Below the pieces are notes generated by a model. That model worked only from the letters and a program-made list of their open reading frames with translations. It made no database searches and had not been told where the DNA came from. The translations under genes were made by a program, and so were the position numbers. A stretch of 64,000 bases of DNA from Chiloscyllium plagiosum (taxonomy: Eukaryota): NCBI RefSeq assembly GCF_004010195.1, contig NC_057718.1, positions 77,811,571-77,875,570 of the forward strand. The letters are read 5' to 3'. Below, piece by piece: positions 4,795-54,760 of the stretch (within the stretch, counting starts at the first letter, position 1; every line of letters begins with the position of its first letter).

Positions 4795-5302
4795 GGGGCG
4801 GTACGGTGGCACAGTGGTTAACACTGCCTCACAGTGCCAGAGACCTGGCTTCAATTCCCGCCTTCTGGAGTTGAGTGGTGCTGGAAAAGCACAGCAGTTC
4901 AGGCAGCATCCGAGGAGCAGGAAAATCGCATTTCGGGCAATTTTCCTGCTCCTCGGATGCTGCCTGAACTGCTGTGCTTTTCCAGCACCACTCTACACCA
5001 GAACCTGGTTTCCAGCATCTGCAGTTATTGTTTTTACCTAGTTCAATTCCCGCCTTGGGCAACTGTCTGTGTGGAGTTTGCACATTCTGCATGTCTGTGT
5101 GGGTTTCCTCTGGGTGCTCCACTTTCCTCCCAAAGTCCAAAGATGTGCAGGTTAGGTGAAATGGCCATGCTAAATTGTCCATAGTGTTAGGTGAAGGGGT
5201 AAATGTAGGGGAATGGACTTGGGTGGGTTGTTCTTCGGAGGATCAGTGTTGGCATATTGGGCCGTAGGGCTTGTTTCCACACTGTAAGTAATCTAATCTA
5301 AT
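4795..5302 (+). mobile_element. HE1/V-SINE-type tRNA-derived SINE, interrupted by a PLE mini-element
   Basis: A box GGTGGCACAGTGG, B-box-like TTCAATTCC, V-SINE core TGTGTGGAGTTTGCAC..GGGTTTCCTC, (TAATC)n tail; matches 16863-17155. Confidence 0.9.
4865..5041 (+). mobile_element. Fold-back mini PLE, family A (apex partly deleted)
   Basis: Inverted arms; perfect 15-bp TSD TTCAATTCCCGCCTT at 4850-4864 and 5042-5056. Confidence 0.88.
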
Positions 5303-13819: not shown

Positions 13820-16010
13820 GTGCATTGCATATATCACACAACTTTAAATCACTTTTTGAAACTCCTAGGCACACATTGATGACTGTGCGTGGGCTCTGCA
13901 TTTTGTTATGACTATGTGATCATAACATAGTTTTTCTAAGATGACTACTTGCAGTGAGAACTGGAATTACTCATCTCTTGTTGTACATTAGTACATCCTC
14001 CACATTATAAAGTGCCTTCTGTGTTTGAAGAATATTTTTATGATGTAGGGTTCTGGTTTGTGATGTGTTATTTTCTAATATTTAAGTGGTGCAAACCACC
14101 CCAAAATCCCTGGTTCTAGACACTGGACTTACTTAGGAAAAGTGACATTAAGAAGGCAATAGACAGGTGTTTCAGGATAAAAGAATCTCTGCATATATTA
14201 AAACACAAAGATAAGTATAACACAAGAAAATATAGATAAATGCAGGAAACAGGGAAATTGACTCAATGGACTATACAGAGGACAGTAATACTATTAACTA
14301 TACTATTAGCTGGACCAAACAGTATTAGAACCTAAAAACAACATTTGAATCGCAGAATCTTTAATTAGGCTTCCTACCCTTGGTATCCCAATGCACAGTC
14401 ACCATCCGTCATCCCCTCCCTGCCAGATAAGTTGGAAACTTTGGGGTCTCAGGAGTTTCAGCTCACCACTGAGGAAAATGTGGTTTTGAAAAATACCTGG
14501 CTATTCCCACTTGCTGTGCCTGGAGCCTGGATGAAGACTTCAGACTGCGTAGGCTTTTCAGTTTGGGTTGAGTCTGCTGATGCTGTAAGACATGTATGGG
14601 GTAAGTACTTGGTTTTCTTTACTTTCTGCTGGTTTTGTGGGCCCAGTTTTCACCTCAGGTTGTGTCTGAGACCTTATGGTGCTGGTTGGCTTGGTTGGTT
14701 TTCAGAGTTTGTTGGTTCTTGGATCTGCTGGTAGTGGTTGGTTTCTATTGGCTCTCCTGGTTCAGAACAGCCCTGTGTCTGGTAGCTCATGCTCGGAAGC
14801 TCTCAGATTTCTCTCGGAAATAGCTCTTGGGACCACCCCTGAAAAAAGACGTTTTCTTCTGGAAATAGCTCCCTCAGGTGAGTTCAGAGCCTGCAATTAT
14901 AATTATTCTGAGCCCCTTATGTTCATGCTAAATCTATGTTTTCCATTGTGTTTCTAGTATTTCTTCTGAAGTAATTGGTTTTCTGATCGTTAAGAGTATG
15001 TGTGAATGGATTTTGAATGAAGTTGAATGTCTAGTGTCTCTATGAATGGATTTTTATTGAAGTTTAATGTCAGATGTCTCTGTAGACCCCTTATTGTCTT
15101 TGCTGGGCAGCCCTAGGTGTAAAAACTGTCTTAGAAGTTTCAGTTGATTGTCCTTTTGGACAGAAGTTGTAATTTGGAATTCCAGGCTGAACAACAGTCC
15201 CAGACAGAAATCATTCTGGCTCTGTTGTATATTTGCTGCAGCCTTGGCCCAGGATTTAATTCAGTATTTTAGATATTGGAAAAGTTCATGGTCTTATCCA
15301 GTATTTTAGATGATGGGTATATCTGCTCAATCCTACAATGACTACACCATTAGCACATTTTCTGACCAACCTTGCATGCAGTATTTGCAAATTTGGATGC
15401 AAGCTTCACTTTAGCACATGAGAAATTGCTCAAAGTTTGTTAATGTTTACCAGCTATAGTGCTGCAGTGCTCTGACAGTAAGCCTTAATTTCATCAATAC
15501 AGTTCATGTTTTACTTGATGAGAATATCCACAGATGTTCTAGACAATGCATGTGCTATTACTTGTTGTTTACCCAGTGTGTACACTATTTTGTAAGATAA
15601 TCTCTTGAAATGAAAACAGATTTTCAGTGGTTTTTGTGATTTCCTTTTCATCAAATAATGAAACTTATGGTTTGTGATTCTTCTGTATGACCATTTTAAT
15701 ATCGATGATATAGTATGAGAACTTTTCACACCTCCATGTGATTGAGGCAACTTCTTTTCCTACATACCTTACCTTCGAATCTGATGATACTCATGGCCCA
15801 ACAAACATTTGCCTGTATTTGAAGAATGACCACCTCCCAACCTGTGGCTGAGGCATCCGCTGCAATTATGGCTGGTAATGAAAATTTTGATATTGTGTCA
15901 CAATATTTGGAAACATTAGAATATTCTCGATCCTTTGCAAAGATTGTCCTTAATGTGCATTCCAACATCATGCATGTGCTTCCTTCAAGGAATGCTTTTT
16001 AGGTCTTGAC
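13820..16010 (-). mobile_element. Decayed Gypsy pol (RNase H to integrase zinc finger), split by a solo LTR
   Basis: IIAADASATGWEVVILQ (RNase H DAS motif, ORF 15726..15971); VIAHALSR (ORF 15511..15750); ILEKLCYDHIVITKCRAHAQ at ~13890-13950 (integrase H2C2 region). Confidence 0.75.
14044..15337. mobile_element. Solo LTR (1294 bp)
   Basis: Starts TGTAGGGTT, ends AATCCTACA (8/9 inverted match); 4-bp TSD ATGA at 14040-14043 and 15338-15341. Confidence 0.8.
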
Positions 16011-20038: not shown

Positions 20039-21079
20039 GATTATGGAGTTCAGCATTGTGCTAGTACTGACATGCATTTGAGTACTTTTCCCATTGGGAC
20101 AAGTGCCGTTATCTATTCAATGCGAAAGAAAACAGTGCTTCAGAACTGTATTGTCATGATTTCAGGGAATTTAAATCTCCACAGTCCCATGAATTTGAAA
20201 ACAATATAGGACTTCAGCTTTCATTTACTCAAGGAACAGGGAATTTCCTGTTTGATAGGATATTGTGCAGCTTAGTAAAGGACCATCCAATTTTTGCAGT
20301 TTCAACAGACTCACTACTTACATTTCCAAGTATTTGTTTGGACAACTATGGTCATTATGGTTGAGTTTCAAATCTAATAACCACTAATCTCAGTGGGGGA
20401 GCCATGTTCACAATTTAATTGACAGTTTTAAGCATTACTTTTTGATATGGTTTCTGAATAGATACGTATTTGTTTTGACAAATGAATCACCACATGAGGA
20501 AAATACATTTTTCTATTGGTTCAGGATTTTAAATACATGAATCACTAACAGTGACAACTATTTTGGTGACAACTATTAAGTTGCTTTCAGTGATAGCTAT
20601 TAAAAGTGAATTTTTAAAGTATTTATTTCAAAGGTTTGCCATTGCTAACTTATGGGTCCTGGATGATGTAGAGAGTGCTTACTGGGTGTGTAGTGATGAA
20701 GTAAATGGCCATAGAAAGCAGAGGTGGTCTGAAATTATGAAGGGCATGTGGTGTGAGGGTCATGGTTAGGGAGGCATTAGAACTATAGTGAAGAGCTGAA
20801 CCAAAATCCCTGAGAATGAAGGCAGACTTTTTAATTAGCCCTCTTCAGCAGCCTCCATTCTCCAATACTGCCTTGGGATTCGTGAAACTTGAACCATGTT
20901 TATCCATATGCCCAGGAGACAAACATCCAGCTGGTAGGAGCAAAGATGATGAACTTGATGTTTGCGAAGTCAAAGGATGATCTTGGATTTCCAAGTCCAA
21001 AGTAAAAACCCAGCCCAAAATGTTCAATGTCTCTGCCATTTCTACAATCCTTTTGCTAATTTCTCTAATCTGTAAAGGA

Positions 21080-21277
21080 GTGTGGTTGGAGTATCCCAAG
21101 GTGGAGGATGAGGACATTGATTCTAAGTTGTTGGAGGGTCCCAAAGTGGAAGATGAGGACATTGATTATGTGTTTTTGGAGGGTCCCAAAGCAGAAGATG
21201 AGGACATTGATTCTGTGTGGTTGGAGGGTCCCAAGCTGGACACTGATTCCGTGTGGTTGGAGTGGCCCAAGGCAGAA
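21080..21277 (-). repeat. Tandem array of a 45-bp PLE endonuclease-derived unit
   Basis: Units start at 21080, 21125, 21170, 21215 (36 bp) and 21251 (partial); minus-strand translation repeats LIFHLGTLQPHGINV-like 15-mers (ORF 21065..21289). Confidence 0.92.
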
Positions 21278-21680
21278 CCCTCCAACCACACAGTATCAAA
21301 GTCGATTTCACCAGTTTCCTCATCTCCCCTCCTCCCACCTTATCCCAGATCCAACCCTCCAACTCCGCACTGCCCTCTTGAACTGTCCTACCTGTCCATC
21401 TTCCTTCCTACCTATCTGCTTCACCCTCTACTCCAACCTATCACTGTCACCCCCCACCTTAATCCACCTAACGCATTCCTAGTTTCCCTTCCCCCCAGAC
21501 CATGCCCCCTCCCATTTATCCCTCAATCCCCTTGCCCCCACCCCTCACAACATTCCTGATGAAGAGCTTATGCTTGAAGTGTCGACGCTCTTGCTCCTCA
21601 GATGCTGCTTGACTGGCTGTGCTTTTCTAGCGCCATGCTTTTTGACTCTGATCTTCAGCATCTGCAGTCCTCACTTTCTC
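21278..21680 (+). mobile_element. PLE family A 3' end (GIY-YIG C-terminus, 3' UTR, decayed hammerhead, tail)
   Basis: Aligns with 44470-44825; degenerate TSD CTAATCTGTAAAGGA (21065-21079) / CTAACCTCTAAAGAA (21681-21695). Confidence 0.88.
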
Positions 21681-21695
21681 CTAACCTCTAAAGAA

Positions 21696-22090
21696 CCAAT
21701 GTTTACTTAACTAGTGTTCTCAGTTTGTATGTCTGTAAAAGGTCTTACTTTATTATTCCTGGCTAGTTTACTTCCATATTTTATTTTCTTTCTCTTTTTA
21801 TTAACTTTTTGTTTGGCCTATGCTGGTTCCTAAAAATATCCCAATCGTCAGGCCCATTGCTATTCTCTGCAACATTGTAAGTCTCTCCTTTTAATCCAGT
21901 ATGCTCCTTAACTTCCCTTGTAAACCACGAATGAATCTTTGGTTTGAGTTTTTTTATTGTTTTTGATGGAATGTGTTTGTGTTCAACATTTTGCATAGTT
22001 TCTTGGAGGAACATAAGCATTTTGGTTTTGGCGTTCCTTTTATAACTTATGGGAATTGCTTTCAAAGCATCTCAGCCAAAGTACTGCACA
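21696..22090 (-). mobile_element. Degraded CR1 ORF2 fragment
   Basis: ORF 21781..22065 SWFTREVKEHTGLKGETYNVAENSNGPDDWDIFRNQ...KKLIKRERK. Confidence 0.75.
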
Positions 22091-24625: not shown

Positions 24626-25301
24626 CATCCTACTGGGAGAAGATAAGCTTATACTAAGGACAGTAACTGATCTGTGCAGAAGTGCCAAAGTTGTCAATCA
24701 ACAACTACAGCACATTCATGGCAGAACACACCAGGTCTCACATTGTGCTAACAGATACTTCAGGTATGGTACACCAATCATGAAAAACAAGACATATCCA
24801 GTGTGGGTAAACTGGCATTTACACTGAAAAATGCTGAATCATTTTCCACACAATTGTATGGCTAAAAGAAGCAGGTATAGGTGGCCACTGAAGAGACAGT
24901 GGCTGAACATTCTGATGAATCACTGTACACCATACACCAGGTTAGCTCAGTCGAGTTTATAGATGATACAGGGTTTGTGACTGTTGGAATGAGAACTGCA
25001 GAAGAACAGCAGGATAATATAAAATGTCAGATAGACACTGGTGCATCGTGTAACATCATAACCTTCACAAACCTGTCCAATGTGGCTCAACATGATGATG
25101 CCAAAATAAAGCCCTCAGAAGTAAGTTTAAGATTATATGATAGCATCACATTCATACTGAGAGGACAAATTACTCTGTGAGCTCATTATAATAAAATATA
25201 TTATAGCACCAGATTCATGCTGAGAGGACAGCTTACTCCGTGAGTCAAAGTTAAAAATCACACAACACCAGGTTATAGTCCAACAGGTTTAATTGGAAGC
25301 A

Positions 25302-25337
25302 CACTAGCTTTCGGAGCGTTGCTCCTTCATCAGGTGG
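25302..25337 (-). ncRNA. Minimal hammerhead ribozyme motif (family B)
   Basis: CCAC-CTGATGA-A-GGAGC-AAC-GCTCC-GAAA-GCTA-GTG; helix I CAC/GTG. Confidence 0.78.
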
Positions 25338-25341
25338 TAGT

Positions 25342-25377
25342 CCACCTGATGAAGGAGCGACGCTCTGAAAGCTAGTG
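25342..25377 (+). ncRNA. Minimal hammerhead ribozyme motif (family B)
   Basis: CCAC-CTGATGA-A-GGAGC-GAC-GCTCT-GAAA-GCTA-GTG. Confidence 0.72.
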
Positions 25378-25470
25378 TGCTTCCAATTAAACCTGTTGGA
25401 CTATAATCTGGTGTTGTGTGATTTTTAACTTTGTACACCCCAGTCCAACACCGGCATCTCCAAATCCGTG

Positions 25471-25659
25471 AGTCAAGAGTGTGATGCTAGAAAAGCACAG
25501 TAGGTCAGGCAGTACCAGGATGAAGGCTTCCTGATGAAGGGCTTTTGCCCAAAACATCAACTCTCCTGCTCCTCGAATACTGCCTGACCTGCTGTGCTTT
25601 TCCAGCACCACACTTGCGACTCTAATCTCCAGCATCTGCAGTCCTCACTTTCGCCTAGA
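25471..25659 (+). mobile_element. Fold-back mini PLE, family A
   Basis: Inverted arms plus tail; TSD TTACTCCGTGAG (25233-25244) / TTACTCAGTGAG (25660-25671). Confidence 0.85.
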
Positions 25660-25758
25660 TTACTCAGTGAGCCCATTGCAATAGCATGAACAAGATTCTG
25701 AAGTTCCATCCCATAGCTGACAAGCAAATGCTAGTCTTCTCAACTGGAGCAAGTCTAA

Positions 25759-41120: not shown

Positions 41121-41934
41121 GACATGTATGCTCGAGTGCAAAAGACAAAGCAGAGTTATTTGCAATAATCTGCAGCCAGAAGTGCTCTGAGGGTAATTTA
41201 CCTCAATCTTATCCTGAGGTTCCCAACATCAGAAGTGTTAGGTAAAAGCTAAGTCCTGTGAACAAAAGCAGGACAAATCAAATTCAGTTAATTATCACCC
41301 ACCAATCATCACTGAGGTGACTGAAGGGATTGTTAACAATTCTATCAACTGGCATTTACTCACAAATAACCTTCACATTAATGCTCAGTTTGGGTTTTGC
41401 CAGAATCATTCAGCTCCAGACCTTAGTACAACATTGATGCAAACATGGACAAAAGAGCTGAATTCTAGAGATAAGATGAGAATGGAACAAAGACCTAGTA
41501 GAACTGACCACAATGGGAATCGTGGGGAAACCTTTCACTAGCAGAAGTTATACGTAACATAAAAGATGATGGTTATGTTTGTTGAAAGCTACATTCCCTC
41601 ATTTTTTCCGCATGGGCATCTGAGGTCTATGCATTGCAGCAACTTCTGCAAACATAAGTCACTGTATTGGCATGCTAATCAGCATGCAAGGATACTTGCA
41701 GCTTAGCGAGAACATAGGTTGGAAGCCAATCATCTCAACCCTCAGATATCACTAAATGAGTTCCTCAGGACAGGATCCTATCGTCCTCAACAGCTTTGCC
41801 AATGACATTTCCTCCATCATAAGATCATAAGTGAAGATGTTCATTTATGACTGCATAGTATTCAGGTCCATTTGCAACTCCTCAGATAATGTAGCCTACC
41901 ATACCTGCATGTAGCAAGACTTGGACAACATTCA

Positions 41935-42031
41935 GAGCTGAAAATGTGTTGCTGGAAAAGCGCAGCAGGTCAGGCAGCATCCAGGGAACAGGAGAATTGA
42001 CGTTTCGGGCATAAACCCTTCTTCAGGAATG
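41935..42031 (-). mobile_element. Single-arm PLE family A insertion with hammerhead core
   Basis: Perfect 14-bp TSD TTGGACAACATTCA at 41921-41934 and 42032-42045. Confidence 0.82.
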
Positions 42032-42051
42032 TTGGACAACATTCACCCTTG

Positions 42052-42259
42052 GCAAAAGTGAGGACCGCAGATGCTGGAGATTACAGTCAAGAGTGTGGTG
42101 CTGGAAAAGCACAGCAGGTCAGGCAGCATCCGAGGAGCAGGAAAATCAATGTTTTGGGCAAAAGCGCTATTCCTGATTAAAGGCTTTTGCCCGAAACTTT
42201 GCTTTTCCTGCTCCTCAGATGCTGCCTGACCTGCTATGCTTTTCCAGCACCACACTCTT
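42052..42259 (-). mobile_element. Fold-back mini PLE, family A
   Basis: Tail on left; TSD GACAACATTCACCCTTG (42035-42051) / GACAACATTCATGCTTG (42260-42276). Confidence 0.88.
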
Positions 42260-43189
42260 GACAACATTCATGCTTGAACCAATAAACACAAAGTAATATT
42301 TTTAGTACAGAACTGCCAGGCGATGCTAACTCCAAGAAGACAGTGTCTAGCCAGTTCTCTAGATATTAAATGGGATCATCATTGTCAAATCCCACAATTA
42401 TCATTGTAAACTTAACTGGACTCTAGTCATTCAAATACTGGACCAAGGCTATGGTGAATAACTCGCATTCCAACTCCCAGAGTCTATGTATCATCTTTAA
42501 GACACATGTCAGGAGGTGGAATCAAATTGCCTGCATGAAAACAGAAATTGAACACAATTCAAGAAAAAAATAGGCTTGACTGAAACCAATTCCTGCACCT
42601 TAAACATTTATTCCCTCCTCCACCGATGCATTTTATCTGCAGTGAGTACCAGCTTCAAGATGCATTCTAGAAATTAGCAAAGACTGATCTGACAAAGAAC
42701 ACTGAGTGATGCATGGAAACACCACTCTCTCCAAGTTCCACTAAAGGCCACACACAATTCTGACTTGGAAGTATATCACTGTTCCTTAACTATTGCTGTG
42801 CTACTATCCTAGAACCCCCAATTGAACTGCACTGAGGGAAATTTTAACAACATGGCCGACAGCAATTGGTTCACCTCTGGCTTTGAAATCAATTGAGAAT
42901 AATCAATAAATGTTGACTTTGCCAGAGTGAAATCTCAAAAATTAATTAAATAACTGTTGGATTTAGGGTAAGCTTGCCAATTGGATGCAGATAGTTCTTC
43001 TATAATGCAACCACTGAGTTCTTGTGCAGCCCTGCATTATAGAAAAATAGCAGTTTAGAAACAGCGAGTAAAATGTCGATGTAATCATATTACAGCCAAC
43101 ACATATTGTTAGAAACAGTGTCCCAAAGTCATTAATCGTGTTACAGCAAATTTGCATAAACAAAACGCACATAACAGAATGGCCTGTAC

Positions 43190-44292: not shown

Positions 44293-44825
44293 ACATTTCA
44301 GGGAACATCTCTAGGACACAAGAACTAAACAACCCCACTGCTCTGTGGCTGACCACTTCAGCTCTCCCTCCCATTCTACCAAGGACATGTAAGTTCTAGG
44401 CTTCCTCCACCACCAAATCCAAGCCAACTGACGAATGGAAGAAGAATGTCTCATCTTCCACCTTGGGATGCTTCAACCATATGGTATCAACATTGTCTTC
44501 ACTAGTTTCCAAATCTCCCTTCCCCCTACCTCATCCCAGATTCTCCAATGCAGCACCATTCTCTTCGCTTGTCCTACCTGTCCATTTTCCTTCTTACCTA
44601 TCTGCTCCACCTTCCCCACCGACCTATCACAATCACCCCTGACCTGTACCGACCTATTGTTTTCCCCCAGCCCCACCCCACACTTCTATTTATCTCTCAG
44701 CCCCCTTCCCCTCCCCACCTCCCACATTCCTGATGAAGGGTTTATGCCCGAAATGTCGATTCTCCCGCTCCTCAGATGCTGCCTGACCGGCTGTGCTTTT
44801 CTAGCGCCACATTTTTTGACTCTGG
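44293..44825 (+). mobile_element. PLE family A 3' end (GIY-YIG C-terminal half, 3' UTR, hammerhead at ~44726-44761)
   Basis: FREHL*DTRTKQPHCSVADHFSSPSHS...EEECLIFHLGMLQPYGIN; ATTC-CTGATGA-A-GGGT-TTAT-GCCC-GAAATGTC. Confidence 0.9.
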
Positions 44826-47679: not shown

Positions 47680-48930
47680 TAAAGAGTTAATTAATGCATT
47701 TGTGTTAACTTTGCAAAATTCTCTACATTTAGGAAAGTTCCATCATGCCGGTCATGAAAGAGAGTAAAGCTGGACATATATTAAACCTCAAGGGAATTGT
47801 GAGGAGTTAGTATTATTTTGTGAAAGAGATATCATGTTTAACTAACTTATTTAAGTTTTTTGAAGGAGTAATGTGTGTTGTGGATAAAAGGAAGCCTGTA
47901 CACACAGTACTTGGATTTCCAGAAGGCATTATAAGAAGGTGTCACCTTAAAGATTATGTTAGAAAATAAATGGTCATGGTGCAAGGACAAAATATTACCA
48001 TGGATAGGTAACTGGTTGGCTGGCAGAAAACAGACAGTATGCATAAATGAGCGTTTCTCTGATTGACCAGACCTGACAAGTGGGGTGTCGAAGGTGTCTG
48101 TGCTGTGTTCTCAACTTTTTACAATTTACATCAACAACTTAGGCAACAGGAGCAAAGTCATGGTAGCTAAATTCACAGATGACACAAAGATAGGTAGGAA
48201 AGTATTTTGTGAAGAAAACATAGATAATTTGGGATGGATATAGAAAGGTTTAGTGAGTGGGCAAAAATCTGGCAGTGGGAGAAAAATGAGGGAAAATGTG
48301 AAGTTGTATGTTTTGGTGGGAAGAATAAAAAAGCAAAGCACACTTAAATAAGGAGCGCAGAATTCTGAGGTACAAACAGTCCTAGCTGTTCTAGTGCATT
48401 TATCACAAAATGGTAGTATGCAGGTACAACACATAGCTGGAAATGTGTTGCTGGAAAAGCGCAGCAGGTCAGGCAGCATCCAGGGAACAGGAGANNNNNN
48501 NNNNNNNNNNNNNNNNNNNNNNNNNNNNNNNNNNNNNNNNNNNNNNNNNNNNNNNNNNNNNNNNNNNNNNNNNNNNNNNNNNNNNNNNNNNNNNNNNNNN
48601 NNNNNNNNNNNNNNNNNNNNNNNNNNNNNNNNNNNNNNNNNNNNNNNNNNNNNNNTGCTGCCTGACCTGCTGCGCTTTTCCAGCAACACATTTCCAGCTC
48701 TGATCTCCAGCATCTGCAGACCTCACTTTCTCCTCAAAGGTACAACACATAACCAAGAAGGCTAATTGGATGCTATACTTTTATTATGAAAGGAACTGAA
48801 CATGAAAGCAAGAATGCTATGCTTTAGTTTTGCAGGGTTAGTGAGAATACGTTTTAAATACTGTCAGTTTTGGTTTCCTTGTCTACAAAAGGATGGATAC
48901 ACGTGGATATGGTTCAGAAGAGGTCTACTG
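47680..48930 (+). mobile_element. CR1 RT fragment
   Basis: YLDFQKA and KFTDDTKIG motifs readable on +. Confidence 0.85.
48436..48737 (+). mobile_element. Fold-back PLE family A with assembly gap (N 48495-48655) at the apex
   Basis: Inverted arms flank the Ns; perfect TSD AGGTACAACACATA at 48422-48435 and 48738-48751. Confidence 0.9.
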
Positions 48931-54017: not shown

Positions 54018-54760
54018 CTGTCGTCAAGATATCTGGTGTATAGAGTTGGTTGGAGGTCCTGTGCAGCAAGGAAGTCTTGTTAGAACTTGTGCATGAAAAT
54101 GTTGGCATATTGGAATGCAAATTTGGTCCCCATGGATGTTCCGTGTATCTGGATGAAGAACTCGTTCTAGATTAGAGTGGTACTGGAAAAGCACAGCAGG
54201 TCAGGCAGCATCCAAGGAGCAGGAAAATCCCTCGGATGCTGCCTGACCTGCTGTGCTTTTTCAGCACCACTCTAATCTAGACTCTGGTTTCCAGTATCTG
54301 CAGTCCTTGTTTTTACCACCTTGAAGAACTCGTTGTCAAAGGTGAAAATGTTGTGGTCGAGCATGAAGCGGATGAGTTGTAGGATGGTGCTCGGAGATTG
54401 GCAGTTGTTGGTTGTGAATACTGAGGCTGTTGCAGCGATGCCGTCATCGTGGGAGCTGCTGGTGTAGAGTGCTGAAATGTCCATTGTGACGAGGAATGTT
54501 CCCACTTCGACTAGACTGTGGGTGCTGCGTTTTTGTAAGAAATTTGTTGTGTTGCAACAGAAGCTGGGGGTCCCCTGTAAAATGGGTTTCAAGATGCCTT
54601 GGACATAACCAGAGAGGATCACACACAGGGCCCCATTGCCTGATATGATGGGACGTCCAGGTGTGTTGACTTTGTGTATCTTCGGAAAGCAGTAGAAGTC
54701 ACCTATGCAAGAAGTACATGGGATGAGAGCATGTAAGGAACTCTTTGGGACTGGATCAAA
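54018..54760 (-). mobile_element. Penelope-like reverse transcriptase fragment
   Basis: ORF 54272..54799 FYCFPKIHK..PGRPIIS...LVTMDISALYTS; continues past the insertion as IQIHGTSMGTKFA..YANIFM...RYLDD. Confidence 0.92.
54167..54321 (+). mobile_element. Fold-back mini PLE, family A (apex deleted), inside the PLE RT
   Basis: Perfect TSD TGAAGAACTCGTT at 54154-54166 and 54322-54334. Confidence 0.9.

Follow-up and report, generated by a model that had tools for sequence, protein, structure and literature searches.

An insertion of a Penelope-like element (PLE) in the genome of Chiloscyllium plagiosum, located within the 64,000-nucleotide stretch that was analysed as a whole (the ‘window’; positions 77,811,571 to 77,875,570 of contig NC_057718.1), is a real and unusual insertion: between its probable left target-site duplication (TSD) and a truncated forward copy of its 3' end lies a tandem array of inverted units, all drawn from one 45-nt segment of the element's own endonuclease gene. 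The reading of this locus that we prefer, and to which we would give roughly even chances, is that an aberrant, internally primed inverted arm and a template jump together seeded a minisatellite, which then grew or was homogenised in DNA. Positions given below are those of the window.

The array and its parent element

The array comprises 198 nt (21080-21277) antisense to the C-terminus of the PLE endonuclease, with a main period of 45 nt and one unit of 36 nt. TRF calls a period of 45 repeated 3.4 times over 21080-21234 (85% matches, score 226) and, in a second call, a period of 36 repeated 1.9 times over 21202-21271. A first-pass annotation, made from the sequence alone, had described this segment as five inverted copies of a 45-bp piece. 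TRF and a comparison within the window confirmed the array, its orientation and its coordinates, and five units are indeed present, but not all of them are whole (their total is approximately 4.4 unit lengths). Whereas that annotation divided the 198 nt into 45, 45, 45, 36 and 27, the units are counted here in phases 1-45 from the junction, all on the minus strand: a partial unit U0 (phases 13-45; 21080-21112), which is the first DNA 3' of the left TSD; two whole units, U1 (21113-21157) and U2 (21158-21202); the 36-nt unit U3 (phases 1-36; 21203-21238); and U4 (phases 1-39; 21239-21277), which abuts the forward copy head-to-head. The PLE sense of the units is the minus strand, on which they encode LIFHFGTLQQLRINV-type peptides in a single open frame. 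A coding role for the array was rejected: the open frame lacks a methionine and is explained by the in-frame unit lengths. An assembly artefact is an unlikely source of the array, since the units are only ~80-88% identical and independent contigs of a second organism (‘organism B’) cross three units without gaps (U0, also seen up to 21105 in a third organism, ‘C’; U1; and U2 as far as 21201), U3 and U4 lying outside the confirmation provided by any sequencing run.

The forward copy (21277-21682, plus strand) is a 5'-truncated PLE 3' end that consists of the endonuclease C-terminus, the 3' region, a decayed hammerhead-like motif and the tail. It carries unit phases 27 down to 1 from 21277, and thus begins in the same segment as the array, as had been noted at first pass; its start was found at 21277/21278. 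Over 372 nt it shares 74% identity with another, longer copy in the window (44471-44824), and the region that it occupies displays very high paralog depth in the sequencing runs of organisms B and C. In natural sense sequence (the 44420-44540 copy), a small hairpin at 44436-44460 has the unit exit point in its loop region; the overall fold is not significant.

The copy at the array locus, being 5'-truncated at 21277, contains no reverse transcriptase (RT) sequence, and the query used to identify the family was the frame of the longer copy (44300-44530, with three stops read as X). The resulting peptide gave 116 protein matches, the named ones coming from whale shark, skates, a ray and sea urchin. 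In eight of 20 proteins scanned the match is immediately preceded by a GIY-YIG domain, which in most of them scores below the Pfam cut-off, and in two of those eight RVT_1 precedes it in turn. By way of this longer copy, the element at the array locus is assigned as a predicted EN+ Penelope-like element with a C-terminal GIY-YIG endonuclease. Since the matches of the longer copy are to the C-termini of PLE GIY-YIG proteins, the 45-nt unit corresponds to 15 codons of the endonuclease C-terminus, in agreement with the original proposal that the units derive from the element's own endonuclease gene.

Additional searches returned little further material. A word-indexed protein search produced no match; pattern scans for further shark DNA produced none in viral contigs and none in GTDB; and a metagenome pattern scan returned 10 loci, with a 37-nt match in only three and a longer PLE stretch in none. 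Protein P0017, with six matched stretches, proved to be an unrelated repeat protein rather than an array of the endonuclease segment. Two predicted host proteins, P0007 and P0069 (a skate neuromedin-U receptor and a NYAP-domain protein), contain the PLE endonuclease C-terminus, through either gene-model error or exonisation.

Two features of the 3' region of the element deserve description. Core words at 21556-21579 on the plus strand (CTGATGA ... GAAG, identified by eye, with a family majority of A at 21579) are what we take to be a hammerhead-like motif with one base decayed. An Rfam search returned no hammerhead match, and only sub-threshold microRNA matches on palindromes; those on the PLE palindromes at 4881-4988, 54170-54277 and 42142-42208 are hairpin artefacts. 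In a young PLE copy (25519-25540), 8 nt from the start of the hammerhead recur at the inversion junction with a spacing of 14 nt, which does not stand out from shuffles (5 of 40). The non-LTR retrozymes are described, in the accounts available, as tandem PLE derivatives with a hammerhead in each monomer; the units of the present array are instead endonuclease coding sequence without the hammerhead words. The second feature is the 3' tail of approximately 35 nt (21648-21682, plus strand), which is delimited both by the inverted arms of neighbouring insertions, which start 29-51 nt from the 3' end, and by a joint in paralogs that runs from 21682 to 21648.

Target site, neighbouring insertions and organisms B and C

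A direct repeat (21065-21079 and 21681-21695, plus strand) brackets the array and the forward copy, with 12 of 15 positions matching (11 of 13 in the core), and is plausible as a TSD. An equal score was reached at 3 of 3000 random left positions, and one of those three was a perfect match of 17 that probably represents the right-hand site matched to itself; the earlier placement of the array inside one TSD therefore stands, as a probable one. The exact edge is uncertain, because the first two letters of the right copy overlap the 3' end of the element and because organism C has A at 21066. The size of the duplication fits: of the 14 other PLE-type insertions in the window, eight are flanked by matches of 11-19 nt that are close to perfect, and one more by a match of 12/14.

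An inverted-plus-forward layout is the rule among the PLE insertions of the window, and is known for these elements (PMC3846280, PMC8557442). In 10 of 11 neighbours the inverted arm starts at the tail boundary, 29-51 nt from the 3' end (the eleventh aligned poorly); such a start is typical of EN+ PLEs, although not obligatory. At the array locus this start lies 391 nt from the 3' end, and not at the tail boundary of 30-40 nt. The screen of other PLE insertions for comparable arrays that had been suggested at first pass was run within the window only: an element-derived array was present at none of the 14 (best lag score ≤10, versus 66 here).

Several other arrangements in the window were recorded in passing. 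At 41924-42270, two successive PLE insertions share the same 11-nt target word three times, which suggests re-insertion at one site. At 25237-25660, a second PLE family has inserted as a palindrome, with a TSD of 12 nt, immediately next to an insertion of the first family. The only N gap of the window (48495-48655) interrupts a young PLE palindrome at its centre. Two direct repeats are unrelated to the array: a 40-nt tandem repeat of two copies (15003-15081), and a two-copy repeat of 48 nt at 63-nt spacing (25134-25244) that adjoins a PLE TSD.

Four of 23 listed sequencing runs were aligned to the window: two of organism B, from one sample, and two of organism C (X6, X8, X9 and X12 collectively). 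Both organisms carry both the left and the right insertion junctions (contigs of B and C span 21660-21937 or beyond at the latter), so that neither provides an empty site. Contigs of organism B, from both runs of its one sample, align gap-free over 20700-21201 and then continue for 90 further letters outside that aligned piece. Among five unit-length shifts that were tested, 21201 is the leftmost breakpoint for two, and a 36-nt skip is the only one with letters (5 of them) that fit on both sides. From this change of register, organism B probably lacks U3 through a 36-nt loss, the joint itself not being among the 15 of 260 listed. The orthologous comparison proposed at first pass thus yields a probable difference in array length in B and no empty site in B or C; the contigs of organism C stop near 21108, and are consequently uninformative on unit number. 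A gain of U3 in the lineage of the window's own genome, once it had separated from that of B, is disfavoured (P 0.02, from 4/32 non-CpG differences).

Age of the array and its probable later reshaping

Most of the array appears to be approximately as old as the insertion, because the divergence of its units (14/179 non-CpG sites differing from the inferred ancestor) is comparable to that of the forward copy (10/101 from the majority of eight window copies) and of the TSD copies (2/13 pairwise). The statement that the units have diverged to a degree comparable with the TSD is therefore borne out, and the suggestion that the array may date from the insertion holds for most units, whereas the pair U1/U2 indicates a later event. 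Over the nine unit pairs other than U1-U2, 44/271 non-CpG sites differ, as opposed to 3/41 for U1-U2. A pairwise divergence of ~16%, set against an age of ~8-10%, is the expectation for simultaneous origin; nine of the ten pairs are star-like, and a late expansion is accordingly indicated for one pair only.

That pair, U1 and U2, has derived bases at phases 17 and 33 in common, both of them non-CpG. Under a star model, the probability of two such shared changes is 0.004-0.05 for an adjacent pair, depending upon rate variation, and 0.013-0.13 for any pair, the top value being reached under strong rate variation. The likelihood ratio in favour of a later duplication is ~90-100 with uniform rates, and ~10-25 when the choice of pair is allowed for; the likelihood-best date of the duplication is 0.5-0.6 of the age. 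By itself, the similarity of U1 and U2 is not significant (P 0.08). The best 45-nt self-match begins at 21101-21102 (40/45), and a duplication in that phase also reconciles the opposite CpG decay of U1 and U2. The unit tree is thus not the star that an origin of all units at once had led the first-pass annotation to look for, although the evidence is of moderate strength and conversion between neighbours would produce the shared changes of U1 and U2 at a constant unit number. Parallel change does occur in the array, since U0 and U4 have a T in common for which organisms B and C both show G (position 21092); that T was dropped as a clade marker for the same reason.

Two additional observations bear on DNA-level copying. 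The three 45-nt unit junctions of the array are base-for-base identical, as copying of one junction in DNA predicts. Furthermore, a single slip explains the 36-nt length of U3, because two GGA words, one of which is itself the product of a unit junction, lie 36 nt apart. Taken together, the evidence favours some remodelling of the array after the insertion, through DNA slippage of the ordinary kind.

Origin of the array

When whole periods are collapsed, what remains is a single arm of phases 13-39, in which phases 40-45 and 1-12 are missing; phases 28-45 are missing from the forward copy as well. Slippage of a single arm cannot supply these 18 of 45 positions, and at least one repeat junction therefore needs an outside template. 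This in turn calls for at least one jump on element RNA or cDNA, either at integration or earlier, in the source element; for the first repeat, the former is the more probable. The inverted arm overlaps the end of the forward arm by 15 nt, and the TSD is kept. Microhomology was not found at the 5' junction, where the target ends in GGA and template phases 10-12 differ (as judged by eye).

The preferred reading would proceed as follows. A staggered cut, of which the TSD is the signature, and a forward arm copied from the usual 3' end as far as 21277 would have opened the event, and both have left direct traces at the locus. The second target strand may then have been primed on element RNA beside the stalled first cDNA, in a manner resembling twin priming, and copying might have continued for 33 nt, followed by at least one jump back of 45 nt and then by joining to the forward arm. 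Such a jump would leave 27 nt perfectly repeated in direct orientation, with a spacing of 45 nt; this is a good slippage substrate, and every slip on it would recreate an identical junction. The units could subsequently have been multiplied or homogenised by DNA slippage or unequal exchange, mostly early, while they were still identical; one 36-nt unit would have arisen via GGA microhomology, and one later 45-nt duplication or conversion (U1/U2) at about half the age of the insertion, with the probable 36-nt loss in organism B as a further step. This explanation implies no function for the array.

Much of this scheme has precedents. EN+ PLEs, as described in the available parts of three accounts, share with this locus head-to-head inverted and forward copies inside a TSD, a C-terminal GIY-YIG endonuclease and internal, homology-free initiation (Arkhipova 2013, PMC3846280; Craig 2021, PMC8557442; Frangieh 2024, PMC11167929). 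For the PLE protein of an anole, priming of both strands and internal initiation that needs no homology are described (PMC11167929), and a 15-bp arm overlap is reported for Pen2a_Av (among PMC3846280, PMC8557442 and PMC11167929). The present insertion differs in that its inverted arm starts 391 nt inside the element and consists of a multi-unit array of a 45-nt coding segment. L1 twin priming and R2 ‘snap-back’ likewise keep the TSD, prime the second strand beside the first cDNA end, and display a short overlap and an extra switch in the inverted arm (PMC11702581, PMC11371274); however, L1 overlaps are 1-10 bp and usually accompanied by 5' microhomology (PMC11702581), as opposed to 15 nt here, and a repeated return to one segment is not described in the portions of those two sources that are available. 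The literature searched, which included few subscription papers and no supplements, yielded no description of a PLE whose TSD encloses an inverted array of several units.

Three other explanations were weighed. All four junctions might stem from the integration itself, by repeated copying of one 45-nt segment (through repeat addition, or through serial end-to-end jumps on a short RNA fragment), with the likeness of U1 and U2 due to later conversion or parallel change. The array does lie wholly within the TSD and starts at its edge, its units are approximately the age of the forward copy with nine of ten pairs star-compatible, R2 proteins are described in part of one account as lengthening their products by template jumping and, in cells, as generating head-to-tail tandems (PMC11371274), and paralogs in B and C carry tandem 35-nt tails, one with an extra tail-like piece between them. 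We nevertheless consider this explanation rather unlikely: it must accommodate the changes shared by U1 and U2, it requires three base-exact jumps between fixed points with ≤1 nt of homology at exit and re-entry and no significant structure around the segment in decayed copies, reiterated products are absent from the available part of the PLE in vitro account (PMC11167929), and none of the 14 neighbours has an array.

It is also conceivable, although in our estimation a shade less probable still, that the array pre-existed in a master copy, as an in-frame tandem expansion within the endonuclease C-terminus, and was copied inverted by twin priming. The start of the inverted arm 15 nt inside the 5' end of the forward arm is twin-priming geometry; every unit length is divisible by 3 and no stop interrupts the frame, although in-frame lengths would arise by chance 1 time in 9; and the non-CpG changes shared by U1 and U2, whose CpG sites decayed in opposite ways, fit a history in the parent. 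A T at phase 10 of U1-U4, in place of the A found in both the 44450 copy and the forward copy, would fit such a history too, but the forward base (21294) may be the odd one, since four paralog pieces begin at 21295. Against inheritance, the longest listed pieces in four runs include no paralogous piece over the array (~100 nt up, 88%), a comparison that is insensitive for old copies, and the 15-residue segment is unrepeated in all ten matched proteins examined. Inheritance from the source element would account for the same data as the preferred reading, and we hold that it probably did not occur. Far less probable than either is a purely post-insertional origin, in which a single inverted arm was rearranged by replication template switching within the quasi-palindrome and then expanded. 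The arms fold into a strong hairpin (-31.9 kcal/mol, z -6.3) and slippage is indicated for other units; yet two switches and a deletion would be needed to produce both the end at phase 39 and the start at phase 13 flush with the TSD, and the age of the units matches that of the insertion.

PLE RTs are the closest retroelement relatives of telomerase RT (TERT), and the first-pass annotation had accordingly attributed all units to a single episode of telomerase-like addition. The comparison did not support that attribution, given the changes shared by U1 and U2, the lack of an alignment region, the 0/14 among neighbours and the length difference that is probable in B; part of what the annotation itself had named as refuting evidence was observed. 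Telomerase requires an alignment region and a template boundary, according to the parts of two accounts available (PMC4993307, PMC12039810). At this locus, the natural contexts at exit and re-entry share ≤1 nt, and folding of three decayed stretches (z 0.11, -0.37 and 0.66) revealed nothing beyond shuffles. In those same partial accounts, both telomerase and the concatemeric cDNA of DRT2 correspond to a head-to-tail array of one short template segment; they differ from the present case in having a dedicated RNA and a function, whereas here there is one locus, with units that are not star-like and with no alignment region or demonstrated boundary element. Although the product resembles repeat addition, the features that can be tested at the locus do not support it; the array is weak evidence for telomerase-like copying, because at least part of it appears to have been reshaped later by slippage, and one old locus cannot carry the inference. 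That a PLE RT re-copied a fixed 45-nt segment three or four times in one integration, without an alignment region, thus appears doubtful. Were it true, the locus would be a fossil of processive repeat synthesis by the closest retroelement relative of telomerase, and young shark insertions would carry perfect arrays in excess; the number of PLE insertions in these genomes is very large. If all units were made at once, they would be evidence, from in vivo, for an ability of PLE RTs to use a bounded template more than once, with a bearing on how telomerase repeat addition originated.

Should the seed alone date from integration, the locus represents a well-resolved birth of a minisatellite from a retroelement junction error, without pre-existing microhomology, which is a useful but modest result. 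The array consists of head-to-tail units of 10-100 nt from a transposable element (TE), as do the TE-derived minisatellites of the human genome, which include partial-Alu repeats beside a full Alu; for such repeats Ahmed and Liang (2012, PMC3389668) propose, in the part of their report available, a trigger at retrotransposition and later expansion by local duplication, and minisatellites without pre-existing microhomology form a class that is mechanistically unexplained according to them. In the present case, by contrast with that report, the units run in the opposite orientation to the parent copy and lie inside its TSD, flanking microhomology is absent, and the parent is a PLE rather than Alu or L1.

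Short reiteration at PLE ends does occur. Paralogous contigs in all four runs (3-5 per run) display a 35-nt step back at the end of the element, which creates a tandem tail, and one contig from X6 contains a further tail-like piece between the tandem tails. These tandem tails, in paralogs of 21648-21682, are a better lead for reiterative priming than the array locus itself.
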